NCBI GenBank assembly: GCA_963664325.2
Contig: CAXXDQ010000003.1
Coordinates: 800,001-864,000, forward strand
Direction: 5' to 3'
DNA: 64,000 nt
Source: Desulfomonilia bacterium
GTDB taxonomy: Bacteria > Desulfobacterota > Desulfomonilia > UBA1062
Part shown: positions 9,702-64,000 of the stretch, in pieces
Numbering within the stretch: position 1 is the first letter of the stretch
Layout of the letters: the number at the start of each line of letters is the position of its first letter
The notes under the pieces: generated by a model
Database searches by the model: none
Told to the model about the DNA's origin: nothing
The model's input: only the letters and a program-made list of their open reading frames with translations
Program-made: the position numbers and the translations under genes

Positions 9702-9752
9702 TTCAGATAACAGATAACTGCGTTTTCAGTTTCACGCCAGGGGGAACACTAT

Positions 9753-10511: not shown

Positions 10512-10574
10512 CGGAAACGCCTGTCCCGATCGCATAAGGACAGGCATTTTTATAAGTTGCTTCAAGGAGATGCT

Positions 10575-13858: not shown

Positions 13859-13909
13859 CGGCATGGCTCAGGCCTGCCTGAATATTAAAAGAACCGACGG
13901 AGGTGACGT

Positions 13910-15148
13910 ATGGAGCTTTATTCTTTCGAGAAATCGTACAGGATGTTCGAGGAGGCGAAAAAGATCGTGCCAAACGGAATCTACGGGCCGAGGAATCCGT
14001 ATTTCCTGACGTTCGGCTCCTACCCGTGCTTTTTTAACAGGGGCAAGGGTTCCCATGTATGGGACGTGGACGGCAACGAATATATAGACTACATGTGCTC
14101 GTTCGGCACCAACCTTCTGGGTATGTGCACTCAGGAGGTGGACGATGCCGCGATGGACCAGATGAAGAGGGGCGACTCCTTTACGCTGCCAACCGACAGG
14201 TGGAACGAGCTTGCATCCCTGCTCGTAAACCAGATTAAAGGCATGGACTGGGCCGCCTTCGGCAAGAACGGGTCCGACGTCACCACGTATGCTGTCACCA
14301 TCGCCCGACAGCAGACAGGCAGAAAAAAAATAATCTCCATTGACGGCGCATATAACGGGGCCCACTTCTGGTGTTCGCACAGCACGAACGGCGTCCCGGA
14401 AGAGTACAGGGCGCATGTGCTCTCCTTCAGATACAATGACCTCGAAGATTTAAAGAGACTCGTGGAAGAGAACAAAGGCGATGTGGCCGGGGTCATTCTC
14501 ACGCCCCATCACCATCCCGCAATGGAAGACCAGGTACTGCCAGCGCCGGGCTTCTACGGCGGCCTCACAGAGTTATGCAGAAAAGAGGGTATCGTCATCA
14601 TCATGGACGACATACGGTGCGGGTTCCGGCTCGATGCAAACGGCTCGCACTGCCATTACGGACTGGAGCCGGATATCATCTGTTTCGGCAAGGCCATGGC
14701 CAACGGCTATCCCATCTCGGCCATCACCGGAAAAGAGTGGGTCAAGTTCGCCGCAGAGTCCACCAATTTCACGGGCACACACTTCTTTTCGGCAGTGCCT
14801 ATGGCGGCATCCATCGCGACGATCAGGATAATCAACCGCGAAGGGGTAATCGAAAAGCTCTACGAAACTGGCCTCAGGCTGAGAGAGGGACTGCTTGCCC
14901 AGGCGAATGCGGCGGGCATCAATGTGCATTACACGGGACATCCCGTAATGCCTTTCATGAGATTCGACAACGACGCCGACTATTCGGTCAACCGTCTGTT
15001 CTGCGGAGAGGCTGCCAGGCGCGGCGTTTTCCTGCATCCGCACCACAACTGGTTCGTATGCAGGGAGCACACGAAGGATGATATCGACAGGACTATCGAT
15101 GTCGCGGGCGAGTGCTTTAAAATAGTGAAAGATCATTTAAACAAATGA
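13910..15148 (+). CDS. Class III PLP aminotransferase (GSA-aminomutase-like)
   Basis: GSHVWDVDGNEYIDY, KNGSD, IMDDIRCGFR, PLP lysine in FGKAMANGYPI. Confidence 0.85.
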   Translation: MELYSFEKSYRMFEEAKKIVPNGIYGPRNPYFLTFGSYPCFFNRGKGSHVWDVDGNEYIDYMCSFGTNLLGMCTQEVDDAAMDQMKRGDSFTLPTDRWNELASLLVNQIKGMDWAAFGKNGSDVTTYAVTIARQQTGRKKIISIDGAYNGAHFWCSHSTNGVPEEYRAHVLSFRYNDLEDLKRLVEENKGDVAGVILTPHHHPAMEDQVLPAPGFYGGLTELCRKEGIVIIMDDIRCGFRLDANGSHCHYGLEPDIICFGKAMANGYPISAITGKEWVKFAAESTNFTGTHFFSAVPMAASIATIRIINREGVIEKLYETGLRLREGLLAQANAAGINVHYTGHPVMPFMRFDNDADYSVNRLFCGEAARRGVFLHPHHNWFVCREHTKDDIDRTIDVAGECFKIVKDHLNK

Positions 15149-15195
15149 CCGGCATCATCTATCAATGATCGCCGATATTTTTCAGGAGGAAAGTC

Positions 15196-16894
15196 ATGAT
15201 GCAGTCCATTGGAAAGGCAGCGGTCCAGACGCTGATAGAATGCGGCGTCGAATATGTATTCGGCATCCCGGGCGGCGGTGCGCTCTTTCTCTATGACGGC
15301 CTTTACGAGCACCAGGGCAGGATAAAGAGCATTACCGTCCGCCATGAAGGTGCGGCTTCATGCATGGCCGACATGTACGGCAGGATGACAGGAAAACCCG
15401 CAGCAGTAGTCGCTCAGGGGGCCTGGGCTGTCTCCAACGCCGCCTTCGGCATTCTCGAGTCATACCTTACGGGTACGCCCATGATCATCATCACAGACAC
15501 CAGCGACTACGGCGGTTTGACGCAGTACGGACCATGGCAGAACGGCACCGGCGAATACGGGTCGTTCAACCTGCCTGAGATGATGCGCTCCATGACCAAG
15601 TACACGACTTTTGCAAACACCCCGGACGAGCTGCTGCACGGCATACGTCTGGCAGTCAAGCATTCGGTTACGGGCAGGCCCGGTCCTGCATGCGTCTGCG
15701 CAAGGATGAACGTCTTCAGCCTGCAGTTCGATACTGAAAAGGCGACTCCTCCGCTTTACCCCGCAGCCGGGCACTTGAATATCATGAAACCATGCATCGA
15801 TGATGAAACAGCAGGCCGGATCGCAGACATGCTGACAAAAGCATCGGCTCCAGTCATCATAGCGGGATCAGGCGTCCACCATTCCAAGGCCCACGATGAG
15901 CTGCGCTTGCTTGCAGAACTGACCGGCATACCCGTGGCGACAAGCTACATGGGAAAAAGCGCCATCGCTGAAACCCATGACCTGGCCCTGGGCACGATGG
16001 GCAGCATCGGGCAGAAGATAGCCAACGAGAAGATCATGGGGGCAGACCTCATATTTGCCGTCGGCACAGGACTCTCCCCGGAAAACACCATGATGCTCTC
16101 CCCGTTTTTCATAAATCCGGCCAAAACAGAAGATCATCCAGATGGATATCGAGCCTCTGAATGCAGGCTGGACTTACCCGGTCGAAATCGGCGCTGTATC
16201 GGACGCCAGTGCTGGCCTTGCCAGAATCATCGAAGCTTTGAAGATAAGAAACTTCGGAAAAGACACCTCAGGCATTATCAATGCGTTGAAAATCAGAAAA
16301 TCGGAAACGGGTTTCTTCACATGCCCGGAGTTCTCGTCGGATGAGTCCCCTATAGCGCCGGAGCGAATCGTGCACGAGGTGAACAAGGTGCTCGACGGCG
16401 ACGCCGTCCTGTGCCTCGACGCAGGTAACAACCGCCAGTGGACGGCACGCCACTTCAAGTCAAAAGGAGCCGGCCAGATTTTCGCGCCGGGCGGCGCCGG
16501 CGGCGTCGGATGGGGACTTCCGGCTGCCCTGACTGCACAGCTTCTCAGGAAAGACTCGAAAGTCGTTTGCATATGCGGTGACGGCGGGATGATGATGATG
16601 CTTCACTGCCTCGAAACGGCAATTGCAGTACGAACTGCCCGTAACATATGTGGTGCTCAACAATGCAGCATTCGGCAACATACTCGACTTTCAGGCGCCT
16701 GGACAGGCGCATCTGCACCCAGTATCCGACGCCGGATATCGAAGCATACGCACGTGCCGCCGGATGTGACGCGTTCAAGATAACAAACCCGAAAGACCTG
16801 GCTGAAGCACTCAAAACCGCCGTCAGCAGCTGCAAGCCGTCGGTTGTTGAGGTGATCACCAAAATCGATGCGCATTTTCAAGCTCATGATGTGA
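15196..16894 (+). CDS. Thiamine-diphosphate enzyme (acetolactate synthase-like), broken by several frameshifts
   Basis: VFGIPGG, VRHEGAA, GRPGP in ORF 15196..16344; ThDP motif GDGG in ORF 16142..16783; C-terminus in a third frame; removing single extra bases (e.g. GCCAAAACAG near 16125) restores the frame; end inferred. Confidence 0.75.
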
Positions 16895-16911
16895 GGAAGG
16901 AGTCCCGGCTT

Positions 16912-18339
16912 ATGGAGCATTACCGGATCTATCTGAATGGAGAATGGGTGGACAGTCAGAAAATAATCCCAGTACGGAATCCGGCCACAGGCGAGGTATT
17001 TGCCGATGTTGCTGCGGTCGGAGGGGACAATGTCCGCAAGGCGATTGAAGATGCCGGTGCTTCGTTCCCGGCATGGTCCGGACTGCCGGCGATTAAACGG
17101 GGCGATTACCTTCTGGCCATTGCCCGGGAAATGACATCGAGAGCGGATAAGATCGCAAGGACCATCACCATGGAAAACGGAAAGCCGCTCGCCCAAAGCA
17201 TGGCCGAGGTCGCCATGACCATAGACCATTTCCGCTGGTTTGCCGAAGAGGGACGCCGCGCATACGGACGCTGGGTACCGAACCAGGCAGACAGCAAGCG
17301 CCACATTGTCATGAAGAACCCCGTAGGTGTAGTCGGCGCAATCTCTCCCTGGAATTTTCCTCTCAATCTGGCTGTGCGAAAAGTGGCCCCGGCCCTTGCA
17401 GCAGGATGTCCGATCATACTGAAGCCGTCCAGCCTTACCCCGTTATCCGCGATAGAACTCGCAGAATGCGTTGATGCGGCGGGTGTTCCCAAGGGTATCT
17501 TTCAGCTTGTCGTGGGCAACTCTTCCGAGATAGCCTCGGAAATGCTGAATAATTCCGTCTGCCGTAAAGTGAGCTTCACGGGCTCAAGCGCAGTGGGCAA
17601 ACTCCTGATTGCAGGTGCTGCAAAGACCTGCACGAGCCTCTCTCTCGAACTTGGCGGAAAACGCGCCTTTGATCGTCTTCGCGGACGCCGATTTCGACAA
17701 GGCCATCGAGGGCGCTCTGATCGTAAAGTTCCGCAACACCGGACAGTCCTGCGTTGCGGCCAACCGCATATACTTACAGCGCCCGATCTACGATAGATTC
17801 ATCAAAGCCTTCTCCGAAAAGGTAAAGGTCATGAAGACCGGTAACGGCCTCGAGCCGGGGGTGGATATAGGACCCCTCATCAATGAGGAAGGCCTTCAAA
17901 CCGCCCTTGAGTTCATAGAAGGACGCCGTATCCAAAGGGGCGCGCCTAGTATGCGGAGGAAATCGCTTGAATGGTCAAGGGACCTTCCTCGAGCCGGCCG
18001 TCCTGGCCGATGTTCCCGATGCTGCCATTTGCATGAGCGAAGAGATCTTCGCGCCGGTTGCCGTCTTTGCCCCGTTCGATACCGAAGATGATGTCCTTGC
18101 AAAGGCGAACTCCACAGAATATGGTCTAGCCGCCTACATATACACGAACGATCTGAACCGCGGACTGAGGATGTCAGAAAAAACTCCAGGCAGGGAGCAT
18201 AGGTCTCAACGATGCCATACCGGCTACCAGCAACTGCCCGTTCGGCGGGTTCAAGCAGAGCGGCTGGGGACGCGAACTCGGCATCGAAGGGCTCGACGCT
18301 TACATGGAAACCAAGCATATATCTATTGGAGGAATTTAA
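16912..18339 (+). CDS. gabD: NAD(P)-dependent aldehyde dehydrogenase (succinate-semialdehyde dehydrogenase-like), frameshifted
   Basis: ISPWNFP, SFTGS, LELGG, GQSCVA, EEIFAP, PFGGFKQSG..YMETK distributed over four reading-frame segments; AAGGAG RBS before ATG 16912. Confidence 0.8.
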
Positions 18340-18399
18340 ACAGAACTGAACCGGCGAGAAAAGCGATGGTACAGATTCGAACATTCTTTAAACCATTTT

Positions 18400-20140
18400 T
18401 TACAAAATCACGACTTGCCGTATTTGAAATTTAAACAAAAGGCCTGCAAAGGAAAACAAATACATTGCAGGCTTTGAAAAGGCTTGGACTAGACGGCGTA
18501 ATTTGCAGGAATACTCTTCGACAATCTTATACTTCTGTATCTTCCCGCTTGCTGTCATGGGATAGGCCTCGACGAACTCCCAGTATTTCGGGATCTTGTG
18601 CCTGGCAATTTTACCGTTGCAGAACTCGACCATCTCTTCAGCCGAGGATTCTTCTCCATCAAGTAGCTGATAACCGCCAGCAGCTGTTCCCCGTATTTCC
18701 TGTCCGGAATTCCCACGACATATACGTCGCTGATCTTGGGGTTCTTATGCAGGAATTCTTCGATTTCGCGGGGATAGATGTTTTCTCCGCCCCTGATTTA
18801 TCATTTCCTTTATCCTTCCGGTAACCTTGAAATAGCCGTTAGCATCAACTTTACCGAGGTCTCCGGTATGAAGCCAGCCGTCCCTGTCTATGGTTTCAAG
18901 TGTCGCCTCATCCATCTTGTAATAGCCCTTCATGACGCAGGCGCTTCTGGTTACTATCTCTCCCTGTATATCGGGACCGGACATCATCTCCTGTAGCAGG
19001 GTCGATGATTTTTCCTTCGATATCTGGCAGAAGTGTTCCGACGGTCGATACCCTGAGCTCGACCGGGTCATTCCTCCTTGTCCATGGTCATGACAGGTGA
19101 ACTTTCCGTCTGGCCGAATGCTATGACGACCTCGGGGCAGTGCATCTTCGTGCGCACGTCGTTCATGACTTCAACAGGGCAGGGTGCGCCTGCCATAATG
19201 CCGGTCCTTAATGAAGGACATGTCATACTTTGAAAAGTCGGCATGGTTCAGCATTGCTATGAACATTGTCGGTACGCCGTTTATCGCCGTACATTTTTCT
19301 CTGTCGATATACTGAAGGGCTTTAAGAGGATCGAAGCTTTCCACAACAACCATTGTCGAACCATGGCTTACGGCATTCAGGGTGCTCATCACGCATCCGA
19401 AGCAGTGGAACAAAGGGGACGTGTATCAGAAGCCCTGTCTTCATGCGTCAAATCAAGAACATTTCCGACCATGATGGCATTGTTCACTACATTGTGGTGA
19501 GTAAGCATTACGCCTTTGGGAAAACCTGTTGTACCGGATGTGTACTGCATGTTTATAACATCATGCGTATCAAGGGTTTGAGCACGCTCCTGAAGTTCCT
19601 TATCGGTTACAGCCTCTCCCATGATGAATAGTTCATCGAACCTGAACATGGCCCGGGAGTGTCATTTCTTCCTCCAACATAGACGACATTTTTTAAATAA
19701 GGCATTTTATCATTTGAGTACCTTCCGCAGCCGGTTTCGCTCAATCCCGGAAGAACCTCATAGGTCATATCGACAAAGCTGGAATCCCTGTAGCCGTCCA
19801 TAAGTACAAGTGTTGTTGAATCCGACTGTTTGAGTATGTATTCAAGCTCACTTGATTTGTAGTTTGTATTGACTGTTACAAGAACAGCCCCGATCATACC
19901 GAGTCCGCACTGCATATAAATCCATTCAGGAAGATTCGTTTGTCCATACGGATACATGATCTCCTTTTTGCTATACCAAGAGCCATGAATCCCTTCGCGA
20001 CACTCACGCACTTTTCTTCGAATTCCTTCCATGTAAGCCTTATCCCTGATTCGGGAAATACAAGTGCTTCTTTATCCCGGATGTCTTAATGCTGTTTCAT
20101 GCAGAATTTTGCCTACTGTGACATTGCGAAAACCACTCAT
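18400..20140 (-). pseudogene. AMP-binding acyl-CoA synthetase, multiply frameshifted (probably sequencing error)
   Basis: Fragments in order: [45 protein letters not shown]; ATG at 20140 after a G-rich RBS; 3' end uncertain. Confidence 0.75.
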
Positions 20141-47130: not shown

Positions 47131-47550
47131 TTAATCCTTATATCCCATATTCAGATAATGAGCAACAGGGATGTTTTATTTGATGACGAGCTCTTTGAAC
47201 AATAATGGATATTCGCGGATTGCGAACATCGAAATTGAGAAGATGTAATAAATTTACCTTGAGGTGAATGCTGCAGTTGACATTGACAATATGGTCTATC
47301 ATTATAAATATAGTTGATATGGGTTTATTATTATAAAAGGAATATATGGTTTTTTTGATATCAGACCTTCATTCTCGGTGTTGCCTGACTTAAAGGCATT
47401 AAGACACACTATTCAGGTTAAGTTGAGATTATCGATATAAGAAACCTCGAACATTGAGGGTAATAAGAACTTCATATTGTATTGAACAGGCAGGATATTG
47501 AGGACTTTCTGATACTGCCTTATATATTTGATGTAAAAGAGGAGGAGATA

Positions 47551-48693
47551 ATGAAAAGATTGATGTCATTGTACTGTCTGCTGGCAGCAACAGCCATGGC
47601 CATAGGGTTATCGGGATGTATAATCGTTTCGGCCTCTCCGGATCCCAAAACGATCGTGGAGATGAAACCTGGTGAGAAAAAAATCTTCAAGGTGGTGGGA
47701 CCGGTGAATACTCCCATCACTAAGTGCAAGTGGTCCGTGCAGAGGATGGGTGTGGATGACTTTGCAGTGTCGGTTCTGGAAGGAGCGAATGAATTCATGT
47801 TTGAAGCCGATCCCAAAGGCGATAAAACCAATCGTATCCTTATTATATGCAGTGTCTATTCTTATGGATTATATGAAGAATGTAGGGAAGCGTGTTTGCC
47901 TGTTCTCGGCTGGAATTGTACAGGCGAAAGAAAATGGGAAGTTAGAATACGCCAGGACAACTCTCCCATCTGGCAGGGGAATTATTATATCCGCGATAAC
48001 AAAGACATACAGTTGCTGAACGGATACACGGCAGTTGCGGGTAATGTAGAGATCGGCAGTATAACTCAATTGCCTCTATACAGTGATATAAAAAACCTGG
48101 AAGGTCTGAATTCACTCAATACGATTGAAGGGGACCTGATAATCTTTAACAATGAAAATTTGGCAAGCCTCTCAGGCCTTCAGAATCTCAACACAGTGGG
48201 AGGAGGTCTGTATATCATATCCAACTATGCGCTCACAAACCTATCGGGTCTGAGAAATCTCTCAGAAATCGGAGCCGGCCTCAATATTATGTACAATAGT
48301 ATCCTCACGGACCTGTCGGGCCTTAACAATATCACAAGGATCGGAGATCAGCTTCACATTTGCTACAACGGCTCCCTCGCAAGCCTGTCAGGTCTGAACA
48401 GTATCACCGAGATTGCAGGCGGCCTCCAAATTTTGAGCAACATTGAACTTAAGTGTCTGTCTGACCTGGGCAACCTGACTACGATAGGGGCTGATATCGA
48501 TATCACTGGTAACGCAGCCCTTACAAGCCTCGGGCTTGTGGCGTTACGCTCTGTTGGCGGTTTGTTTAAAATCAGTTGCAATAACGAACTATGCAACGGA
48601 CTGGTCGAAGGTTTGCGGGATCAGGTTGAAAACTTGGATGGGATAAAGGGGGAGATTTACATTTATCTAAACAGGGACTGCACAACACCCTGA
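47551..48693 (+). CDS. Lipoprotein with receptor-L-domain/LRR-like repeats, paralog 1
   Basis: GGAGGAG RBS, LSGC lipobox, ~25-aa repeats LxGLxNLxxIGGxLxIxxNxxL, C-terminal two-Cys cap. Confidence 0.8.
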   Translation: MKRLMSLYCLLAATAMAIGLSGCIIVSASPDPKTIVEMKPGEKKIFKVVGPVNTPITKCKWSVQRMGVDDFAVSVLEGANEFMFEADPKGDKTNRILIICSVYSYGLYEECREACLPVLGWNCTGERKWEVRIRQDNSPIWQGNYYIRDNKDIQLLNGYTAVAGNVEIGSITQLPLYSDIKNLEGLNSLNTIEGDLIIFNNENLASLSGLQNLNTVGGGLYIISNYALTNLSGLRNLSEIGAGLNIMYNSILTDLSGLNNITRIGDQLHICYNGSLASLSGLNSITEIAGGLQILSNIELKCLSDLGNLTTIGADIDITGNAALTSLGLVALRSVGGLFKISCNNELCNGLVEGLRDQVENLDGIKGEIYIYLNRDCTTP

Positions 48694-48711
48694 GGCTACA
48701 GGAAGACTTAT

Positions 48712-48747
48712 CACCGGCTCTAGGGTCTGATTCCCGGGCCGGTATTG
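48712..48747 (+). repeat. Intergenic hairpin duplicated at 49669-49703
   Basis: CACCGGCTCTAGGGTCTGATTCCCGGGCCGGTATTG versus CACCGGCTCCCGGGCCTGACCCGGGGCCGGTATTG. Confidence 0.7.
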
Positions 48748-48774
48748 AAAATCCATTTCTTGAGGGAGGTAAAA

Positions 48775-49650
48775 ATGAAGAGAGGCAGATTGATTGTTAT
48801 CGGATTGGTTGGATTGGTTCTGGCATTAGGTTTGTCCGGGTGTATTATCACTTCGGCATCACCTGACCCGAAGCAGATCGTCGAAATAAGGCCGGGTGAA
48901 AAAGTCATATTTAAGGTTGAGGGTCCGGTGAACACGCCCATCAGCAGATGTGTTTGGACCGTCGAGACATATTTAACCGCGCCTGAAGTTGTCAGCATAG
49001 GGAAGAATGAGTTTGAATTGAATTTCAATGCCGATTCTTGGATGTCAAACAAGAAAAATATAGTTACCTGTGAGTACCAAACCTATGTATGGGATCCGAT
49101 TGGTGTAGGAAATAGTACGATCTATATCAGTTTTGAATGTTTCTGGATAACAGTCAACTCCATATCCTGGGAGGTTAGTATAAACCCGGACAGCTCCACT
49201 GTGATGCCAGGTAATTATTATATTCAGAACATTTCTGACCTTCAGTCGCTGAGGGGATATACTACTGTTACAGGATCTTTAAAAATCATTCCAATTGATG
49301 TTAATGGCGACTTAACCAGCTTGTCCGGGCTTGAGAACATCACATCGATTGGCGGAAGTCTGATTATTTCGCATAATGACGCCTTAACAAACCTGTCCGG
49401 TCTTCAGAACCTTGCATCGGTTGGTGGAGACTTGGCAATCGGGGGGGGGAGGTCTGGGTATAATGGAAATGTCGCCTTAACGGAATTGGGAATGTCAGGC
49501 TTACAAAGGGTTAATGGGGAATTTTCAATATCTTATAACCCACTGCTTTGTACATCTTTAGCTGAGGAGCTTATGAACCAGGTTCTCGCAGGGGAAGGCA
49601 TCGGCGGCACCATCGATATTAGTGGAAACAAGGCTTGCACCATGCCCTGA
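48775..49650 (+). CDS. Lipoprotein with L-domain/LRR-like repeats, paralog 2
   Basis: GGGAGG RBS, LSGC lipobox, same N-domain (SASPDPK, GPVNTPI), fewer repeats. Confidence 0.8.
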   Translation: MKRGRLIVIGLVGLVLALGLSGCIITSASPDPKQIVEIRPGEKVIFKVEGPVNTPISRCVWTVETYLTAPEVVSIGKNEFELNFNADSWMSNKKNIVTCEYQTYVWDPIGVGNSTIYISFECFWITVNSISWEVSINPDSSTVMPGNYYIQNISDLQSLRGYTTVTGSLKIIPIDVNGDLTSLSGLENITSIGGSLIISHNDALTNLSGLQNLASVGGDLAIGGGRSGYNGNVALTELGMSGLQRVNGEFSISYNPLLCTSLAEELMNQVLAGEGIGGTIDISGNKACTMP

Positions 49651-49668
49651 GACGATCAAAAGATTGAG

Positions 49669-49703
49669 CACCGGCTCCCGGGCCTGACCCGGGGCCGGTA
49701 TTG
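49669..49703 (+). repeat. Second copy of the intergenic hairpin
   Basis: ACCGGCTCCCGGG-CCTGA-CCCGGGGCCGGT stem-loop. Confidence 0.7.
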
Positions 49704-49731
49704 TTTAATATGTATTTAAAAGGGGGAAAGA

Positions 49732-51126
49732 ATGAAAAGAAGAATGTTTCTGATCTTGTTGTTAGCGGGATTGGTTATAGCTGCAGGGCTATCTGGGTGC
49801 ATTTTCTCGACCTCTCCTGACTCCAGCAAGGGCATATTGATGAAGCCCGGAGAGACAAAGGTTTTCAAGGTCAACGGCGCGAACCTCAATTCGTCCGTGA
49901 CCCAGTGCAGCTGGTTTATCGACAGGAAGGACGGGAGTCCCAAAGAGGTCATCGAGAGAACAGACCATATAGAATTCACAGCCAATCCCGAAGGCGAAAA
50001 GTACAACAGGGTAGTAATCGAGTGTGCTTTTTACAGGTTGATGTGGGTCCCTCCCGAAGGCGGAGGCGGCGGAGGCTGGGTTTTCATAGAAACAAGCAGA
50101 AAGACATGGAACGTCTGTGTAGCCAGGAACACCGCCCCTGTATGGCAAGGCGATTTCTACTTGAGTAACAGTGCGGATATGCAGGCGCTGGATGGCTATT
50201 CTGAAATCACCGGCTCGGTGTATGTCATGGAAACAAAATTGAAAAGCCTGGAGGGATTGATTGCTCCCAGCAGGATTGATGGAAGCCTTGTAATAATTGA
50301 AAACCCTGTCTTGAAAAACCTTGCCGGTCTTGAAGGTCTTGCGTCAGTAGGAGAAGATCTGAGAATCAGCTCCAATGATTCTTTGAAGAGCCTTTCCGGT
50401 CTGGAAAATCTTTCATCTGTCGGCCGTTTTGCCAGAATCGAGTGGAATGACTCGCTGGAAAACGTGTCCGGCCTTGAAGGTCTGACGGTTGGCGATACGC
50501 TTTGGATCGAAGTAAACAATGACCTGAAAAGCCTTTCAGGCATGAAAAACGTCACGGCTTCTGATTTGTTTATTATGAATAATGACTCTTTAACAAGCCT
50601 TTCGGGTCTAGAGAACATAACCGCACGGTATATGTGGATATACAACAATCAGAGTATGGCGGACCTGTCCGGCGCAGCTAATGTCAAAGCCTGGCAACTC
50701 GACATCGACAACAACTACAGCCTGGCAAGCCTGTCCGGCATCGGGAATATTGAATTCGACTCGTTGAGCCTAAAGGAGAACCATAGTTTGACGAGCCTGT
50801 CCGGCCTTGAGTATCTGACATCCGCACCCGTAAGTATAACTATTGAAGACAATATGGCTTTGACAGATCTTTCCGGCCTCAGAAATCTGACCTTTGCCTG
50901 GTGCCTGGAGATAAGAGGAAATTCCTCCCTGGCGGCATTGGGGATGGACTCTCTTCAGAGAGTGGATTGTTTATTCGAGATAACTGACAACCCCAAGCTT
51001 TGCACATCACTGGCCGAGGCTTTCAGGGACCAGCTCCTTGCGAGGGGAGGCATCGGGGGAGGTGAAGGATGCTTCATATCACCCTTTGTAATAATTGATT
51101 CCAACAAGGACTGCAGCGGGTCTTGA
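49732..51126 (+). CDS. Lipoprotein with L-domain/LRR-like repeats, paralog 3
   Basis: LSGC lipobox, MKPGETKVFKV, most repeats of the three, C-terminal NPKLC..NKDC cap. Confidence 0.8.
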   Translation: MKRRMFLILLLAGLVIAAGLSGCIFSTSPDSSKGILMKPGETKVFKVNGANLNSSVTQCSWFIDRKDGSPKEVIERTDHIEFTANPEGEKYNRVVIECAFYRLMWVPPEGGGGGGWVFIETSRKTWNVCVARNTAPVWQGDFYLSNSADMQALDGYSEITGSVYVMETKLKSLEGLIAPSRIDGSLVIIENPVLKNLAGLEGLASVGEDLRISSNDSLKSLSGLENLSSVGRFARIEWNDSLENVSGLEGLTVGDTLWIEVNNDLKSLSGMKNVTASDLFIMNNDSLTSLSGLENITARYMWIYNNQSMADLSGAANVKAWQLDIDNNYSLASLSGIGNIEFDSLSLKENHSLTSLSGLEYLTSAPVSITIEDNMALTDLSGLRNLTFAWCLEIRGNSSLAALGMDSLQRVDCLFEITDNPKLCTSLAEAFRDQLLARGGIGGGEGCFISPFVIIDSNKDCSGS

Positions 51127-56157: not shown

Positions 56158-57420
56158 TCAAGACAAGCTTGATATTACAGTTTTTATGAGTTTAGTCAGA
56201 TTGGAAAGCCCGCCTGATAATCTTTTTATATACAGCATTGAGATGCTTTTTGATTTTTGATCCTTGTAACGTTTTTTCATAAAGGAGGACGAAGGGAAGG
56301 CCGCTTCAAAAACAAACTTCACCTTCTGCTTCAAAGGCAGCTGTTTTATTACGTACAGGTACTGCCTGGTCGATGTCTTCATCGGCTGGGAGTTGAGCTT
56401 GAGGATGAATGCATTTCTGTTTGAATTCAGGCGGCTTTCAACCGGAAGGGCTTTGCCGAAAAGTTCTTCACAGATACGTGATGCAAACATGAGGATATCC
56501 GTCAGGCCGAGCTTTTCAAAAATGCCTGAAAGCTCGTCCCAGTCGATCAGGTGATTCCATTTTTCCGCGATGAAATATGTTTCATAAAAGTGAAACAGTC
56601 CCGAGACAGCTGTGCCGTGGCAGTAATATACGTGCAGTATCTGATGGATAAGGCAGACCGTATGCGAAAGCATAAAAAGCCCCGGGATATTTTGGAAAAA
56701 TCTGTTATCCGGTATGGGCACAAGCTGTTCAAAAACCCAGCTGTTAAAGTCAAATCCTTTTTGCTGATATTGCTTGAGGAGCTTCCAGTGAAGTTCGATG
56801 ATCAGACCGTTTGCTGCAGTATTTCTTATCATCAGGTGTTTATCTTCAAGGATAGAGGATGACACGGGCCCCGAATGGGTTTTGTCTTCAACTAAAACAC
56901 TGTATCCGGCATTCTTCAGCTTGTCAGCAACCGCATTCAGGTTTTCATCACTGACGAGCAGGTCTGTATCGCACATATTTCTCAGAGATGTGTCTTCATA
57001 AAGAGTTAAAGCCATTACGCTGCCTTTGAGCATAATGACAGGCTGAAACACAGGCAGGACAGCAGGGAAGACGTTTCCTGAGAGCTCTTTATAGCGCAGT
57101 TCGTTTGTATGCTTTATTCGCATTCTCATGGCGCTGAAATTAAGCCATATATCCATGGGAATCTGTTCAAGAAGGGTTTTCAATTCGGGTTTTTTGCTGT
57201 TCATCAATGCCGCAACACCTTCACCAAGCGCTACTCTTTCAAAAAGCCGCCAGTCGTCAGCCGAGTACTCGGTCCAGGCAGCTTCATTGCACCTGTCCGA
57301 GAGGCATTTGCAGATGTCGAGGTAGACCTTCAGCAGATTATCTGCATTGTCATAACGCTCTTCAAGGGCCTCAAGAGGAATGTTCGTATTCTTTGGTCTG
57401 CTCTTTCCATGATCTGGCAT
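56158..57420 (-). CDS. Nucleotidyltransferase family protein (NTP_transf_5-like)
   Basis: MLKG..LY..LRNMCDTDLLV (DxD), IELHW, ILH; start uncertain, overlaps the ABC gene end. Confidence 0.8.
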   Translation of the reverse strand: MPDHGKSRPKNTNIPLEALEERYDNADNLLKVYLDICKCLSDRCNEAAWTEYSADDWRLFERVALGEGVAALMNSKKPELKTLLEQIPMDIWLNFSAMRMRIKHTNELRYKELSGNVFPAVLPVFQPVIMLKGSVMALTLYEDTSLRNMCDTDLLVSDENLNAVADKLKNAGYSVLVEDKTHSGPVSSSILEDKHLMIRNTAANGLIIELHWKLLKQYQQKGFDFNSWVFEQLVPIPDNRFFQNIPGLFMLSHTVCLIHQILHVYYCHGTAVSGLFHFYETYFIAEKWNHLIDWDELSGIFEKLGLTDILMFASRICEELFGKALPVESRLNSNRNAFILKLNSQPMKTSTRQYLYVIKQLPLKQKVKFVFEAAFPSSSFMKKRYKDQKSKSISMLYIKRLSGGLSNLTKLIKTVISSLS

Positions 57421-59242
57421 ACATGCCGCCCTTTTTTATGAGTTCATCATGAGTTCCTGATTCAACAATACTGCCTTTATCCATTACATGTATAATATCA
57501 GCCTGCATGGCCGTGGTGAACCTGTGGGTTATGATCAACGAGGTCTTTCCCCGAGCAAGAGCTTTAAACCTTTTGAGCCAGTCGTTTTCAGCCCACGAAT
57601 CCATGGAGCTTGTCGGTTCGTCAAGCATCAGGATTGCCGAGTTTCTCAAAAAAGCCCTCGCAAGGGCAACCCTCTGCCATTCCCCCAGGCTCAGGTCCGA
57701 ACCGCCGAACCACTTTCCGAGAACGGTTTCATAACCATTGGGAAGTCTTGAAATCGGGACATCGGCACCCGATGAGACCGCAGCCCTTTTTATATCATCC
57801 AGACCAGGTCCGGATTCCATACTGCCAAAGGCGATATTATCAAATGCCGTTGCATTGAAATGAACCGGTTCCTGAAAGAGCACGCTTATCCTTCCCCTGT
57901 GCCTTTTCAAATCCAGATCCTTCATATCGACACCGTCTAGAAGCACCCTGCCGCTTTCAGGGTCATAGAACCTGCATATGAGTCTGGTAAGAGTGCTCTT
58001 GCCCGCTCCGTTCGGGCCTACAATGGCTGTAGTTATGCCTGCTGGTATCTTAATGCTGAATTTCTTTATGACGTGATCTGCGCCGCAGGGGTATCTGAAA
58101 GTTGCATTGTCGAATACGATACCGTCTTTAAGGGAAGAATCGAATTCCAAGGGTTCAGCAGGGTTCTTCACCGTTGGCTCGATGCCGAAGAATACGAAGA
58201 GGTCGTCAACGAACATGCTGTTCTTGTATATAGTTCCAACATTGCCCAGTACATTTTTCATCAGACCCTGACCCTGGTTGAATGCCTGGTAGAGCATTGC
58301 GACTTCTCCCAGGTTGGCCTTTCCGTGTGCAGCCCTTAAAAGAATCCATATAACTGCAATTCCTATCACTGCCATGCCGAAAAGTTGAGCAGCGAATTCT
58401 GCCACGGCCTGCTCCCTGGTAAGCGCAATCTTTTCGTTTCTCAATACGGCCCTCAAGTTCTGATAACTTTTCCTGAAACTGTCACCCAGGCCGTAAAGCC
58501 TTATTTCCTGTGCGGAGTTCCTGTGGGTAATCATATGGTCGTAATAACCGGCCATCCTGGAGTCGGGCGTTCTCATTATTCTCCAGCTGTTCATCTTCCT
58601 CGAGTAGTAGCCTATTATGAACAGTGCGGGAATTGTGCCCACGAATAAGAGGACAGGCAGCAGAACTCCGAATGAAAAAAGTATGCCTGCCATTGCAAAA
58701 AGGGTGATGCAGCTCTGTACGAGCATGCCCAGGTTGTCGAGCAGAGTCTGCGGCATGTTCTTGGCATCGTTCTGCGCCCTGTAAAGCTTATCGAACGATT
58801 CCGGGGATTCGAAAAAGGCCATGTCCATCTCAAGGGCTTTTTCGTGGATCCTGTTTGTCATGGTGTCCTGTATGATTTCCGTCTGCTTTATTTTTACAAG
58901 TTTCTGTGCAAAACCGGCGATACTGTTTGCCAGATATATGATAATAAACAGCAGGGCCAGAGATACTGTTTTCGAGGCGTCGGTTCCCCTCCCCGAAATA
59001 GTAATGGTCAGGCTGTTTATGAAGGCTTTTGTCAGATACACGGTTGCAACCGGAAGAATGCCCTGAACGATAAGAAGGCACGCCCACAGTATCGTCCATT
59101 TACGGGCGATGTCCCAGACAAGGGCGGTAGCCTTGAAGAGGTTCCTTGTCAGCAAACTTATATTGTCCCAGATTTCTTTCGGGCTTTTGAATATCTTTTC
59201 ATCCACAAAGAAAACTATCTCATTAGATTTGATTCGATACAA
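57371..59242 (-). CDS. ABC exporter, fused permease + ATPase, no C39 peptidase domain
   Basis: TM domain then GPNGAGKST, LSLGEWQR, LDEPTS, ITHR; real start may be slightly downstream. Confidence 0.92.
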   Translation of the reverse strand: MYRIKSNEIVFFVDEKIFKSPKEIWDNISLLTRNLFKATALVWDIARKWTILWACLLIVQGILPVATVYLTKAFINSLTITISGRGTDASKTVSLALLFIIIYLANSIAGFAQKLVKIKQTEIIQDTMTNRIHEKALEMDMAFFESPESFDKLYRAQNDAKNMPQTLLDNLGMLVQSCITLFAMAGILFSFGVLLPVLLFVGTIPALFIIGYYSRKMNSWRIMRTPDSRMAGYYDHMITHRNSAQEIRLYGLGDSFRKSYQNLRAVLRNEKIALTREQAVAEFAAQLFGMAVIGIAVIWILLRAAHGKANLGEVAMLYQAFNQGQGLMKNVLGNVGTIYKNSMFVDDLFVFFGIEPTVKNPAEPLEFDSSLKDGIVFDNATFRYPCGADHVIKKFSIKIPAGITTAIVGPNGAGKSTLTRLICRFYDPESGRVLLDGVDMKDLDLKRHRGRISVLFQEPVHFNATAFDNIAFGSMESGPGLDDIKRAAVSSGADVPISRLPNGYETVLGKWFGGSDLSLGEWQRVALARAFLRNSAILMLDEPTSSMDSWAENDWLKRFKALARGKTSLIITHRFTTAMQADIIHVMDKGSIVESGTHDELIKKGGMYARSWKEQTKEYEHSS

Positions 59243-59344
59243 CCTGTTTTTGGGGACATGATTGTTTCATGGTATTGCCATCCGGGTATAAATTCTGTAA
59301 GTCTGAATTTGTTGGGACGCAAATGATAATATTTGAGGGTTATT

Positions 59345-59527
59345 ATGAAGAAGGAACCATGGAAAAAACCTGAATTGATTGTCCTGGTGAAAAACCAGGC
59401 TGAAGAGGCCGTATTGAACGGATGCAAAGGTGGCGGTTCCACAACAAGCTTTTTATCACATAATGATAATTGTCATTCAGATGCTCCAGCCTGCACAACA
59501 TTATGCAGTTCTCCGCTAGCAAGCTGA
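59345..59527 (+). CDS. RiPP precursor peptide 1
   Basis: MKKEPWKKPELIVLVKNQAEEAVLNGCKGGGSTTSFLSHNDNCHSDAPACTTLCSSPLAS; GAGG RBS; homologous to three other peptides in the cluster. Confidence 0.85.
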   Translation: MKKEPWKKPELIVLVKNQAEEAVLNGCKGGGSTTSFLSHNDNCHSDAPACTTLCSSPLAS

Positions 59528-59591
59528 ATCGTGGATCAAATTCTGTTTCAATCTGAATTTGATAAGCAAAATCATATGGAGATAAAATAAG

Positions 59592-59795
59592 ATGAGAAAA
59601 GTAAGCAGAAAGAAAATAAGGACCGAGCCAGAGATGACCGTAATAGTCAGGAACATGCCTGAAGAAGCCGTTTTAACGGGATGCAAGAATGGCCCTGTAT
59701 ACACCGTGTCGGCTAATGATTACTGAGGGGGCTGTTATGCCCTTGGGGCATACAATCCTTGTCAGAACATATGCAATGCTTTGCAGGCTTCATAG
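59592..59795 (+). CDS. RiPP precursor peptide 2 with in-frame TGA at 59724-59726
   Basis: MRKVSRKKIRTEPEMTVIVRNMPEEAVLTGCKNGPVYTVSANDY*GGCYALGAYNPCQNICNALQAS; GGAG RBS; homology continues past the TGA to TAG. Confidence 0.7.
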
Positions 59796-59822
59796 ATACG
59801 ACCATAAAAATGTCTTGAAATA

Positions 59823-60881
59823 TTGAATCGCTCCACGGCATGCATGAAGATGAATATTAAGATGGATCAAACTATTCAGGAAGACCGGCCTTCGCAATAT
59901 ATATTTCAGGGAGGAGAACTTCATCTTTCAAACTTAGGCCAGCTCGAGTTGCTGCGAGCAATGATGGAGCGCCGTGTTCCATTGCGCACGATGGTCCGCG
60001 GATTCAGCATGCATCCGTTCATCAGGGACGGGGATGTGCTCGTTATTTCGCCTCTAAACGGAAGGAAGCCTTCTCACGGTGATGTGGTTGCATTTACACA
60101 ACCGGTTATGGGAAGGCTCGCAGTTCACCGCATTGTCGGCAGATCAAAGTCGGGCCTGATTATACGCGGAGACAATTGCCATGAAGCGGACAGCGTCGTA
60201 ATGGCGGATCGCATACTGGGGAGAGTGACGCGCATCGAACGTTGCGGACGGACTGTCCGTACCGGTCTGGGCTATTCCGGCATGCTGATTGCAGCATTAA
60301 ATAAAGGTGATCGTTTGATGCGTGTAAAACATGTCATCAATACTCCCCGCCGGGCAGCAAGCTATGCGCTCAGGTACCTGCAGGCGGTTTCCTGCTATCG
60401 ACTTCTTCTCAGAAGACTGGCATTGGCAACTGTTATCGAAAAGGCCGATGAAAGCGATATGGAAGCCGTTCATAAGCGCTTCAATCCGTATAGTCCGTAT
60501 CGAAAGCAGCCAGATAATCCAGAAGTAACCAACTGGGTTGCCAGGCGCTCAGGCAAAGTACTTGGCTTCATACAGCTTGTGTATCATCCCGAAAAGCATT
60601 TCCCATGGGTTGGGTTCTGGCTTTTTTCTCTTCATGTATGGAGTTTATACCGAGGGTTTGGCGTAGGCGAAAAGCTTGCCCGCCGGGTTATTGAAAAAGC
60701 TGTCGAAATGGGTGCCCAAGAGCTCAACCTTGTTGTTTATGAAGACAACCTGAGCGCCATCAGGCTATATGGTAAACTCGGATTTGTGCATGCAACACTG
60801 CCAGGTCTCGAACCGATGTTTTTATCCGAACAGCAAAGGACCGGGCGAAGAAGAATAGTCATGCAAAAGCAATTGGGTTGA
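59823..60881 (+). CDS. S24/S26 signal-peptidase-like domain fused to GNAT acetyltransferase
   Basis: GFSMHPFIRDGD, GDVVAF, VHR, RGDN (S26-like Ser/His); C-terminal YRGFGVGEKL and NLSAIRLYGKLGF (GNAT motifs); start uncertain. Confidence 0.8.
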   Translation: MNRSTACMKMNIKMDQTIQEDRPSQYIFQGGELHLSNLGQLELLRAMMERRVPLRTMVRGFSMHPFIRDGDVLVISPLNGRKPSHGDVVAFTQPVMGRLAVHRIVGRSKSGLIIRGDNCHEADSVVMADRILGRVTRIERCGRTVRTGLGYSGMLIAALNKGDRLMRVKHVINTPRRAASYALRYLQAVSCYRLLLRRLALATVIEKADESDMEAVHKRFNPYSPYRKQPDNPEVTNWVARRSGKVLGFIQLVYHPEKHFPWVGFWLFSLHVWSLYRGFGVGEKLARRVIEKAVEMGAQELNLVVYEDNLSAIRLYGKLGFVHATLPGLEPMFLSEQQRTGRRRIVMQKQLG

Positions 60882-61044
60882 ATACCCTATAAGCATAACA
60901 CCAGATGGATGTTGTTTCCTGCAGCTTCAATTATCCGGCAGTAATTTTTTTGTTTTCCTCGATCATCAGAGCTAACCTTCACTCCATGACTCGTTTCGAT
61001 TTCTGCCGGTGTTTCGGCTCTCGACGAGGTGCTTCTGGAAGAGA

Positions 61045-61221
61045 TTATGATTGCACATCCCCACTGCAAACAGGACATTCTTCTTCGCCGCTGATCTGGC
61101 ATTCTACATTCGTGTTATTCGGGCCCTCAAGCAAATATGGCCTTTTGCACGCGGCGAGTATACTTTCAGCACTCTTAATACGCACTAACGCAATCAATTG
61201 GGGAACATGCCACTGCCTCAT
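61045..61221 (-). CDS. RiPP precursor peptide 3
   Basis: MRQWHVPQLIALVRIKSAESILAACKRPYLLEGPNNTNVECQISGEEECPVCSGDVQS; GGGAG upstream; same leader and Cys pattern. Confidence 0.82.
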   Translation of the reverse strand: MRQWHVPQLIALVRIKSAESILAACKRPYLLEGPNNTNVECQISGEEECPVCSGDVQS

Positions 61222-61340
61222 ACAAGCAATCATCTCCCTTACGCTTTAAGATACCATATGCTGTTAATTGATATTCCTTCCGACAAAAATCAACGATAAG
61301 TATAAAATATCAATCGATCGTCAGAAAGCAAGAAAAAACA

Positions 61341-61382
61341 GAGTTCACAGTTCAGGGTTAAAGGCTGAAGGTTCACAGTTCG
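61341..61382. repeat. Degenerate heptamer tandem repeat
   Basis: GAGTTCA CAGTTCA GGGTTAA AGGCTGA AGGTTCA CAGTTCG. Confidence 0.55.
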
Positions 61383-61433
61383 TATTATATGGGTGGTCGG
61401 CGGGGACGGTCCCGGTTGCGGTGCGCTAAGCGT

Positions 61434-62546
61434 TTAAGGGCTGTTTCCTCCGTCCCTAATCGCTGCTGCCCTTGCGTGAGCCAACTCGCAGAAGTAGGGA
61501 GTTGCGCCGTCCAGTTCGCCTGTCTCCAAGTGCGCATGGGCAGGGCACCACAGGCACAGGTTTACTATTGGGCATTTGCGGCATGAGTCGAGGAAAGATC
61601 TTTTGTCAGAACGCATATCCCGGATTTTCGGAACAGCTTCCCAAGCGTCTTTCAGTGCGACCTTTCTTAGATCGCGGGTCGTTTCATCGGCCCACAACGA
61701 TGAGCAGAGGCGGAACCTTCCGTCATAGCTTACATTAAAGCTCCCGTTGCCTGCACCGCAGTGGAACAGGTGGTTGCAGTCGATGTGGCCGAACTTATCG
61801 TTTATCAATAAGCTGCAATTTTTTATCAAAGCGCCGAACCGCTCTTCATCTGACTTTTCCAGCTCGATCATCTCTGCAGGGGTCAAACGTTCAGAACGGA
61901 TTTCAGCGTTTCTTTTCTCGTCGCCGTCGAAACGCAGATGAAGCTGCGGATCGAACCTGAAAAAGTCTTTTGTCCGGGCGCGGCAGAAATCGGCAATTCT
62001 TTTCTGCTCGTGCAGGTTTGACCTGATTGCCATTGTCTTAAGCCTGATCCTGATGCCGTTTTTTATAAGCAGGTCAAGTCCAGTCATGAATTTTCCGAAT
62101 GATCCGGGGCGTCTGGTAACGCACTCATATGTTTCCTTTGTCACGCCGTATACTGTCGTTTCAATGTCACGCGGCGGGAATTTTTTAAAAAGCCTGATGT
62201 GTTCTTCATTCAGCAGGGCGGCGTTTGTAAAAACCGAAACCAGCAGTCCCTTTTTCTTCAGCATCATATAAATTTCGGTAAAATCCTGCCTTAGAAGAGG
62301 TTCTCCACCTGTTAACAAACACCAGACGGCTCCCATATCCACGGCCTGTGCGGCTATATCCGCGATCTCTCCGACGCTTAATTCTCCGGATAGGGCATCA
62401 TTGTCGCCGGCGGGCAGATTGATATAGCAGTGGCGGCAGTTCATATTGCATCTGGCGGTTATTTCGATATCAAAGGATATCGGAGAACGTTTTGACTTAA
62501 GCCTGTCCCAGAGGCCGAATCGCTGTATCTCAATCTTTTCAGACAC
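61434..62546 (-). CDS. Radical SAM/SPASM peptide maturase 1
   Basis: CNMNCRHC, TGGEPLL, FTN; SPASM-type cysteines CGAG..C..CRKC..C..CPA..C. Confidence 0.92.
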   Translation of the reverse strand: MSEKIEIQRFGLWDRLKSKRSPISFDIEITARCNMNCRHCYINLPAGDNDALSGELSVGEIADIAAQAVDMGAVWCLLTGGEPLLRQDFTEIYMMLKKKGLLVSVFTNAALLNEEHIRLFKKFPPRDIETTVYGVTKETYECVTRRPGSFGKFMTGLDLLIKNGIRIRLKTMAIRSNLHEQKRIADFCRARTKDFFRFDPQLHLRFDGDEKRNAEIRSERLTPAEMIELEKSDEERFGALIKNCSLLINDKFGHIDCNHLFHCGAGNGSFNVSYDGRFRLCSSLWADETTRDLRKVALKDAWEAVPKIRDMRSDKRSFLDSCRKCPIVNLCLWCPAHAHLETGELDGATPYFCELAHARAAAIRDGGNSP

Positions 62547-62555
62547 TTGTGAGGT

Positions 62556-62855
62556 TCAATTTTTTATGGAAAGGATGCGGCGGTTGACCATCTCAGAGGC
62601 AAAGCCTATTACATCCTTTTCTATCTCACCGGTATCAGATGAAAACTCGTCGGAAAGTTCAGCCGCAACTTGTCCAAGTGATTTCCCTCCGTCAAGCTTC
62701 TTCCATATGGCCTTGCCGGTATCGTTCAATGTGTACAATTCGTCGTCCGCATCTCCAATGCCTGCGATGAGCGGTACGATGATGATATCGCCCTCGATCT
62801 CCCGTGAAACTATGTCATCCGATAGTGTACAGATAGTTTTAGCATCAATATTCAT
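62556..62855 (-). CDS. PqqD-family RiPP recognition element
   Basis: VSREIEGDIIIVP, LYTLNDTGKAIWKKLDG, DVIGFASEM; GGGAG RBS. Confidence 0.9.
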   Translation of the reverse strand: MNIDAKTICTLSDDIVSREIEGDIIIVPLIAGIGDADDELYTLNDTGKAIWKKLDGGKSLGQVAAELSDEFSSDTGEIEKDVIGFASEMVNRRILSIKN

Positions 62856-62881
62856 ATTTAGCAGTCTCCCGTTCCAATATA

Positions 62882-63058
62882 TTATGAAGGATTCCAGGTG
62901 CTGCAGTTAGGGCAACCAGGCCCCGTGTCGTTACATAGCCTGTCACTGATTGATGGACCCTCGTGGCCTCCGCCTTCGTCCTTGCAGGTGGCAAGGACAT
63001 TTTCTTCCGTATTGCTTCTCGCCAGTACTATAAGCTCGGGCTTCTTCCATCTTTTCAT
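62882..63058 (-). CDS. RiPP precursor peptide 4 (not in the ORF track)
   Basis: MKRWKKPELIVLARSNTEENVLATCKDEGGGHEGPSISDRLCNDTGPGCPNCSTWNPS; GGGAG RBS; directly upstream of PqqD. Confidence 0.88.
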   Translation of the reverse strand: MKRWKKPELIVLARSNTEENVLATCKDEGGGHEGPSISDRLCNDTGPGCPNCSTWNPS

Positions 63059-63113: not shown

Positions 63114-64000
63114 TCAATTGTGAACATATTCATCGGACTGACCGATTCTCTCCTTCCAATCCTCAACCTCCCAGCCGAATTCATTTTTAGCAAGCCAGCC
63201 CATCCACCGCGCCTGAGCATGTGCAGCCTCACAGAGATATTTGACTGGGGTATCAAGAGTCTGATGTTCGCTCCATGACTTTGCGGGGCACTGTTCGCAG
63301 AGTCCCTTCAGAAAACATAATGCACAGCGTTTCAGATATTCCGGGTTTTTCGCACGCATTTCTCTCAGATCCCTAAATTTGTCCAGGATTGTTTCAAGTG
63401 AATACTTGCATGTATCATATGTCAATTCAGGCGCCCGTACACCCATGCAGGGTTGTGCGGTGCCGTATGCATCGATGCACATGCCGCAGCCTGCCCCGCA
63501 CCTGAACAGATTTTCGCCCGGCGGTCCCATGAATTTCGATGCGAACTCGCTTGTGCTCTTTCTGAATTTATCAGCATCCCTTGTGAGGATTCTCAAGCCC
63601 TCCTCAGGTGACAGGCGGATTGATCTGATCATTGCGTTTTTTTCAACGTCATCGCATCTGTTCCTTAGGTCGAAGAACATCGAATAGCTCGGCCTTTTCG
63701 TCATCCATCGTATTGTCTCGGCCCATGCCTCAAACTCGTCCATCTCGTATCTGTTCTGAGGCAGAAGCGCCGACTTTATAATGAACGGGACTCCACGCTT
63801 GATAAGCAGATCGACACCGCGCCGGTACTGTTTGAACGAGCCTTTCGAGCGTGTCACAGCTTCATAGGATTTCTCATGCATGCCGTAGGAGGTTATTTCG
63901 ATTGTCACAAGCGGCGGGACGCGTTTGAAAAGCTCGGCAAGTCTCTCATCGATAAGCCTGGCATTAGTGAAAACAAGGACTTTCATGCCCAGCTTTCTTG
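63114..64000 (-). CDS. Radical SAM/SPASM peptide maturase 2 (5' end outside window)
   Basis: Paralog of 61434..62546: VFTNARL, IEITSYG, CGAG..PC, CALC..LCEQCPA..LCEAAHA. Confidence 0.88.
   Translation of the reverse strand, partial: RKLGMKVLVFTNARLIDERLAELFKRVPPLVTIEITSYGMHEKSYEAVTRSKGSFKQYRRGVDLLIKRGVPFIIKSALLPQNRYEMDEFEAWAETIRWMTKRPSYSMFFDLRNRCDDVEKNAMIRSIRLSPEEGLRILTRDADKFRKSTSEFASKFMGPPGENLFRCGAGCGMCIDAYGTAQPCMGVRAPELTYDTCKYSLETILDKFRDLREMRAKNPEYLKRCALCFLKGLCEQCPAKSWSEHQTLDTPVKYLCEAAHAQARWMGWLAKNEFGWEVEDWKERIGQSDEYVHN

Follow-up and report, generated by a model that had tools for sequence, protein, structure and literature searches.

A predicted tail-phosphorylation module in a radical SAM peptide gene cluster from a Desulfomonilia bacterium

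The peptide gene cluster described here lies at the end of a 64,000-nucleotide stretch of DNA from a Desulfomonilia bacterium (contig CAXXDQ010000003.1, positions 800,001 to 864,000; the whole stretch is called the window below), between carA, which ends at position 56028, and the window end. It carries four precursor peptide genes (A1 to A4), genes for two radical S-adenosylmethionine (SAM)/SPASM enzymes (RS1 and RS2), and an NTP_transf_5 nucleotidyltransferase gene (Table 1). The evidence makes it rather likely that this is a pathway for a ribosomally synthesized peptide with post-translational modifications (RiPP) in which radical SAM chemistry on cysteines is combined with the tailoring set of paeninodin and the linear polyphosphorylated peptides (LPPs). 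A tail-modifying module coupled to a radical SAM scaffold had been proposed from the letters of the window alone (the sequence-only reading). It was found that the kinase it called for exists and that the terminal Ser of the precursors is conserved, while the transferase proved patchy and divergent. It had not been foreseen that most copies of the kinase form a fusion with a third radical SAM enzyme (RS3).

Conservation of the precursor tails

According to the sequence-only reading, all four precursors end in Ser exactly six residues after the last Cys. This was observed in all four; in A2, however, the Cys-rich tail lies behind an in-frame TGA, so that three of the four are intact. In the A2 orthologs of two other loci (L001 and L011) this codon is TGG, and both orthologs keep the Trp of the WxxP leader motif, which the window copy has lost. 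A2 is therefore probably a decaying, dead copy. Selenocysteine insertion or recoding at the TGA was rejected on the same two grounds.

Since the four window precursors are paralogs, chance was tested on other loci. These were recruited with RS1; 318 were confirmed in GTDB genomes, and the best 80 of the 318 were analysed (73 bacterial, six archaeal and one unassigned record, from 16 named phyla, methanogens included). Precursors were searched for with a tail-blind profile, which was made from the leader only and cut before the first Cys, and scores of at least 8 were counted. The search returned 102 matches, of which 98, from 59 of the 80 loci, were kept and four weaker ones dropped. The expected conservation of the terminal Ser was borne out, as 89 of the 98 matches, kin included (median RS1 identity among the loci, 67%), ended in Ser and three in Thr. 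Cys was found at position -7 in 84 matches, and Cys(-7) together with terminal Ser in 83. The six that ended in neither Ser nor Thr look truncated or frameshifted. Positions -2 to -5 varied freely, no residue being present in more than 18 of the 98. As background, Ser accounts for about 11% of the residues in the cores and for about 9% (64/709) of the last residues of long open reading frames. Profiles that contained the tail gave agreeing counts (61 Ser and 8 Thr of 74; in a second search, 131 and 14 of 150), which were not relied on; the leader-only count was used instead. A homolog of A3 (P0130) also has the C-x5-S end.

The leader consensus was WxxPxLxxLxR...EExVL, followed by Cys-Lys. Among the 92 precursors ending in Ser or Thr (six of the 98 dropped), leader positions -6, -4 and -3 were E, V and L in 91, 86 and 90, respectively; then comes the Cys, and Lys was the next residue in 89. 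Between three and five Cys were present in 88 of the 98 cores. Apart from the cysteines, one Lys and the terminal Ser, nothing in the hypervariable cores is fixed, so the enzymes seem to be tolerant of sequence, a property that would be useful for peptide engineering. A search for family size yielded 2,351 precursor-like representatives (50% identity, E 0.001 or better), from which one repetitive 536-residue match (P0338) was set aside as unrelated. Together with the spread over 16 phyla, this indicates a RiPP family that is large and uncharacterised; these bacterial and archaeal modified peptides are widespread and seemingly undescribed.

The kinase, RS3 and the nucleotidyltransferase

A gene for an HPrK-like kinase had been predicted just past the window end. 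No kinase was found within the 64-kb window by profile search, and HPrK-like kinases were present in 30 of the 35 homologous loci with at least 7 kb of upstream DNA. The kinase is a domain of about 300 residues with the pattern H..GxSxxGKS..DD, scoring strongly in 45 of the 80 loci (fused only in 36, stand-alone only in five, both forms in two, cut in two). It mostly forms the C-terminal half of a protein of 650-700 residues, the N-terminal half being RS3. In 35 of the 43 loci holding both the kinase and RS2, the two lie on one strand and the kinase ends upstream of RS2, at a distance of at most 1.2 kb. The locus L001 has the gene order of the window down to carA, with an RS3-kinase gene upstream of RS2. 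A search with this fusion identified P0202, an intact RS3-kinase fusion of 660 residues. The longest contig recorded for P0202 is 1,210,899 bases long, a figure shared with RS1 and A4 of the window, and for this reason P0202 was taken to be the kinase gene predicted for the window cluster. The predicted kinase exists; a position of P0202 beyond 64000 is suggested by synteny. A search of a plasmid collection gave no match to the kinase or the transferase.

The residues His-Lys-Asp-Asp, the catalytic motif of the lasso kinases (PMC9266682), have all been retained by 44 of 47 kinase genes, and P0202 likewise has them (H501, K522, D545, D546). Searches against the sequences of solved structures were uninformative, as the kinase profile hit nothing but the P-loops of ABC transporters and the transferase gave a single non-significant match; fold searches were therefore needed. 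The kinase model (pLDDT 84) matched three HPr kinases with Z scores of 10.1-10.4 and PEPCK with 12.6. Most of the top eight rows were HPrK or PEPCK entries and one was a complex I subunit; the row after them had a Z score of 4.6. As modelled, the fold of the domain is that of HPrK/PEPCK. The Pfam family PF27840, named ScmC, is precomputed on P0202. PadeK, ThcoK and SyanK phosphorylate a C-terminal Ser (PMC9266682), and PsmK phosphorylates the terminal Ser of its peptide (PMC6993621). It is quite probable that the kinase described here does the same.

The presence of RS3 was compared with that of an extra Cys, which precedes the last Cys by three or four residues. A precursor with this residue was found in 30 of the 32 RS3 loci and in none of the five loci with a stand-alone kinase only (one of 12 when seven hand-assigned RS3-less loci were added). 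Independent pairs on the RS1 tree are few, which weakens the link: four of five fit it and none was opposite (p 0.125). A tie between RS3 and the extra Cys is thus no more than suggestive. All three window precursors that are intact (A1, A3 and A4) carry the extra Cys, as expected from the presence of P0202. In five loci a stand-alone kinase is kept where RS3 was lost. The stand-alone kinase of L022 (2077-3042) opens with residues from the start of RS3 and then jumps to the kinase, an apparent internal deletion, so that loss of RS3 left the kinase in place. Loss of the kinase catalytic residues was found in three RS3 fusions (L050:5427-7568, L060:5032-7140 and L078:8273-10252); in L050 and L060 the kinase domain lacks the His and the Asp-Asp.

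The assignment of an NTP_transf_5-like protein with an intact DxD motif held. The window protein scored 93.3 bits with PF14907 (cut-off 31.2), and D151-T-D153 was invariant in 29 homologs; across these aligned cluster homologs, the invariant residues were K132, G133, R147, D151, D153 and H211. Its model aligned with MenT1 (Z 13.4, rmsd 3.1, 184 residues) and with ANT(2'') (Z 12.6, rmsd 3.1, 164 residues); the ANT(2'') entry 4xje is also a template named for PsmN (PMC6993621).

Proposed pathway and alternative explanations

Gene content, motifs, folds, the conserved tail and co-occurrence are the observations from which we infer every chemical step of the following pathway. The RRE would bind the WxxPxL leader, and RS1, RS2 and RS3 would modify the conserved cysteines, with RS3 handling the extra Cys. 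The most likely products are thioether cross-links, a chemistry that the sequences make somewhat probable. The HPrK-like kinase would phosphorylate the terminal Ser. The signal-peptidase domain would cut after E-x-V-L-x-x, freeing a core that starts with Cys-Lys; the conserved leader end fits such a cleavage at this predicted site, and a hydrophobic -3 residue is described for LppS cleavage (PMC13381572). The GNAT domain may acetylate the freed core. Where present, NTP_transf_5 could decorate the phosphate, with a hexose as in pseudomycoidin or with a nucleotide, as an optional step, and the ABC transporter would export the product. In the pseudomycoidin system, PsmN and its DxD are required for the hexose on the phosphate, the mechanism having been left open (PMC6993621). 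The chance that the transferase acts on the peptide here is placed a little short of even.

Several findings weigh against this pathway, the first of which concern the kinase and its substrate. The kinase has only weak sequence likeness to HPrK proper (TIGR00679, 21.6 bits against a cut-off of 240), and HprK-related models gave weak matches, all below cut-off. Moreover, HPrK-like RiPP kinases also modify an internal residue, Ser3, in the case of BsfK (PMC10368454) and LppK (PMC13381572). The kinase might accordingly act on an internal Ser or Thr, on a protein of the pathway or on some small molecule, with the terminal Ser serving export or proteolysis. PEPCK is among the best fold matches, and a related kinase in a second cassette of L078 (see below) goes with a candidate precursor whose last residue is not Ser. 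The cores, however, have no internal position with a conserved Ser or Thr (position 3 is G in 16, T in 12 and S in 11 of 92), and Thr is the only tolerated substitute at the tail, which points to use of the hydroxyl. Such a different substrate is considered improbable.

A second set of findings concerns the reason for which the terminal Ser is kept. The C-x5-S spacing is fixed, a constraint that a tail kinase would not by itself impose and that suggests that a radical SAM enzyme reads or links the C-terminus. No kinase was found in the available DNA of L009, L010, L014, L016 and L040 (one clade), L023 and L065. With L050 and L060 added, the loci that lack an intact kinase nearby number nine, and every one of them retains the terminal Ser/Thr; they correspond to about four independent lineages, two pseudokinase loci included. 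The Ser may therefore be kept mainly for the core radical SAM enzymes: RS1 or RS2 would link Cys(-7) to Ser in a seven-residue ring or read the C-terminus, phosphorylation would be secondary or optional, and the kinase would be partly a tail-binding anchor for RS3. RS1, with which the loci were selected, is present in all 80, and RS2 in 59. On the other side, the catalytic residues of nearly all the kinase genes are intact and the precursors offer no other conserved Ser/Thr as kinase substrate. Clusters are often split, the kinase lying at a distance of 9-10 kb in L020, L055 and L076, which leaves room for a kinase acting in trans, and it is possible that the nine loci have one elsewhere in their genomes. 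This explanation was judged fairly unlikely but a serious rival, and a radical SAM role of the Ser is compatible with its phosphorylation.

The two ideas can be joined in a more elaborate scheme, which is rather doubtful. Up to three radical SAM enzymes would each take one Cys, indexing from the C-terminus, in a new RiPP class. The RS3-kinase would phosphorylate and grip the Ser, and one radical SAM enzyme would tie Cys(-7) to it, possibly by a phosphate-driven decarboxylation giving an aminovinyl-type link. NTP_transf_5 would use the phospho-Ser as the point at which the peptide is glycosylated or attached to surface polysaccharide.

The remaining findings against the proposed pathway concern the transferase. 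It was found in 34 of the 80 loci and in 26 of the 43 with at least 6 kb downstream, an upper bound since some copies (in L019, L058 and L078) may be part of adjacent cassettes. Its median pairwise identity is 22%, compared with 45-67% for the core genes. Deletion of lppN in the LPP system is described as causing no change (PMC13381572). A transferase working outside the peptide pathway, as a neighbour recruited for surface polysaccharide or another substrate while the Ser is still phosphorylated, thus carries appreciable weight, at less than an even chance. The gene occurs in both orientations and is missing from many complete-looking clusters: among the 24 loci for which 7 kb is available on each side, both enzymes occur in 12, the kinase alone in eight, the transferase alone in one and neither in three. 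It also leans to polysaccharide loci (10/12 versus 11/24 elsewhere; Fisher p 0.04, kinship uncorrected), in a comparison of 36 loci of at least 15 kb in which the polysaccharide census, made from seven seed proteins, is a lower bound. Against such a neighbour, 26 of the 34 copies lie at most 800 bp from a core gene, and transferase distances track those of RS1, weakly (rho 0.21, 3 of 500 shuffles). The window copy overlaps the ABC gene and is flanked on its other side by carA, not by polysaccharide genes; the same pairing is kept in the psm, bsf and lpp clusters (PMC6993621, PMC10368454, PMC13381572).

The pathway preferred here, in which the kinase phosphorylates the tail, would mean that the kinase/transferase module can be carried over to yet another scaffold, the third besides those of lasso peptides and LPPs. 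With members that have or lack RS3, kinase and transferase, the natural gene-loss series makes the role of a PsmN-type NTP_transf_5 and the benefit of the radical SAM-kinase fusion testable.

Relation to known systems and other features of the loci

The LPPs (Popov et al. 2026, PMC13381572) are non-lasso RiPPs that are phosphorylated at Ser3, have variable C-termini and come mostly from Bacillota. The idea of a tail module on a non-lasso peptide is consistent with the kinase and transferase genes found here, although it is not the first such case, as the LPPs were published earlier. The LPP core set consists of an RRE, an archaeal-type signal peptidase, an HprK-like kinase, an NTP transferase and a transporter resembling MsbA (PMC13381572). 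All five accessory genes were also found here, with the peptidase below the TIGR02228 cut-off. LPPs also share a [Y/W]xxP leader and are often near capsule genes (PMC13381572). In contrast, the LPP leader is YxxPxVLxHQxIxFETxxS with a Ser3 phospho-site, which differs from the leader consensus and the variable position 3 reported above. The text of the LPP paper does not mention radical SAM, apart from one column heading in a supplement matrix (PMC13381572). Here, two to three intact radical SAM/SPASM genes form the core, so that, judged from the genes, the peptides are not expected to be linear products lacking a scaffold enzyme. The core is Cys-rich, with an invariant terminal Ser, and the hosts are anaerobic bacteria and methanogens. 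Membership in the LPPs was rejected because the leader motif and Ser3 are absent and radical SAM enzymes are core.

With paeninodin and pseudomycoidin, as described, the cluster shares a WxxP leader, an RRE, a His-Lys-Asp-Asp kinase and a conserved C-terminal Ser. A DxD transferase modelled on ANT(2'') beside an ABC exporter is likewise found in pseudomycoidin (PMC6993621). The difference is that the scaffold enzymes here are radical SAM/SPASM proteins and that the kinase is mostly fused to one. No macrolactam synthetase (C) or B2 leader peptidase was detected among the 10 window cluster proteins or as a recurring family in the 80 loci, and lasso membership was rejected on this ground. The system works like the paeninodin/LPP module, yet it is a member of neither class.

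The SynChlorMet cassette (TIGR04248-04251: ScmD, ScmC, ScmE and ScmF) has paired radical SAM/SPASM enzymes, a PqqD and a ScmC-type protein. The paired enzymes and PqqD are also present here, and the kinase domain carries PF27840. On RS1, however, ScmE and ScmF scored 86.2 and 79.1 bits (cut-off 400), and on P0202 54.4 and 77.7; ScmD reached 26.5 (cut-off 100) and ScmC (TIGR04249) 22-41 (cut-off 125). With ScmE, ScmF and ScmD below cut-off, membership was rejected. The ScmE/F-like genes of L019 and L078 score 333-521, far above the window cluster, and SynChlorMet is a sister system with another precursor type. In L078 (12226-16124, minus strand), a SynChlorMet-like cassette was found with ScmE (368/400 bits), ScmF (333/400 bits), a ScmC-like kinase, a signal peptidase and NTP_transf_5; a YxxP-leader, Cys-rich peptide ending in Arg (12884-13168, minus strand) is its candidate precursor. 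A true ScmE (521 bits) lies directly upstream of the genes of the present family in L019 (391-1485). In the same locus (7023-10461), an HprK-related kinase A-like gene adjoins a 671-residue gene, a candidate lasso cyclase; several RRE systems cluster together there. In L058 (6251-10914), a second cassette encodes a Ser-rich peptide with a YxxP leader and no Cys, along with a signal peptidase, two radical SAM enzymes, another kinase and PqqD.

As in ranthipeptide and sactipeptide systems, radical SAM/SPASM enzymes, an RRE and a Cys-rich core are all present. The best models (PapB, AlbA and StsB) nevertheless fall far below cut-off and the cores here have no conserved acceptor residue. To our knowledge, the kinase and the transferase are not part of those classes. 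CrpC, which concerns thioethers in methanogens, belongs to another system (PMC13692751). No description of a family with three radical SAM enzymes and a C-terminal Ser was found in searches of the open literature; subscription journals and preprint supplements were outside their scope, and radical SAM RiPP atlases may therefore already list the family.

The genes of the window cluster lie on both strands, the NTP_transf_5 gene being nearest to carA. From the window end, the minus strand carries RS2 (cut), A4, PqqD/RRE, RS1 and A3, followed by the exporter and NTP_transf_5; the other precursors and the signal-peptidase/GNAT gene are on the plus strand. In RS1, the CxxxCxxC motif and eight C-terminal Cys were invariant among 29 aligned sequences; CxxxCxxC was present in 76 of 76 RS1 and 56 of 58 RS2 proteins. 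The ABC exporter is without a peptidase domain. The signal-peptidase-like domain keeps its Ser, His and Asp (S62, H102, D117) and scored 42.4 bits with TIGR02228 (cut-off 51.85); by the precedent of LppS, the product is likely the leader peptidase. In model scans of the window proteins, the precursors were matched by no family model. Promoter and terminator scans gave signal at or below shuffle level.

Table 1. Features of the peptide gene cluster in the window
Feature	Position	Strand	Family models and remarks
NTP_transf_5 nucleotidyltransferase (PsmN/LppN-like), 420 aa	56158..57420	-	PF14907
DxD (D151-T-D153) of NTP_transf_5	56962-56970	-	within 56158..57420
MsbA-like ABC exporter	57371..59242	-	ABC_membrane + ABC_tran; MsbA-like models below cut-offs
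Precursor A1, WxxP leader, predicted 34-aa core	59345..59527	+	Cys 1/17/24/28; end CSSPLAS; terminal Ser codon 59522-59524
Precursor A2, broken	59592..59795	+	tail CNALQAS behind TGA 59724-59726
S24/S26 signal-peptidase-like domain fused to GNAT acetyltransferase	59823..60881	+	TIGR02228, PF00717, PF00583
Precursor A3	61045..61221	-	core Cys 1/17/25/28; end CSGDVQS
RS1, radical SAM/SPASM enzyme, family marker	61434..62546	-	PF04055 + PF13186
Stand-alone PqqD/RRE	62556..62855	-	PF05402, 52.9 bits (cut-off 23.4)
Precursor A4	62882..63058	-	core Cys 1/18/25/28; end CSTWNPS
RS2, radical SAM/SPASM enzyme	63114..64000	-	about 90 N-terminal residues beyond the window end

Optional tailoring genes were also observed: a SAM methyltransferase in 10 loci (L004:9168-9986 and nine others) and a sulfotransferase in four (L017:3744-4331 and three others). 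In some loci (L009:9068-9967, L004:8230-9168), an unnamed domain of about 170 residues takes the place of GNAT as the fusion partner of the signal-peptidase domain. Elsewhere in the window, three tandem genes (47482-51126) have lipoprotein-like N-termini and leucine-rich repeats; two of them were scanned and both match the Receptor L domain. The region 10557-18434 has a GC content of about 55%, compared with 42-48%, and several of its genes look frameshifted, thiamine-dependent enzyme-like and aldehyde dehydrogenase-like by our own reading, which suggests that sequence errors can occur in this contig.

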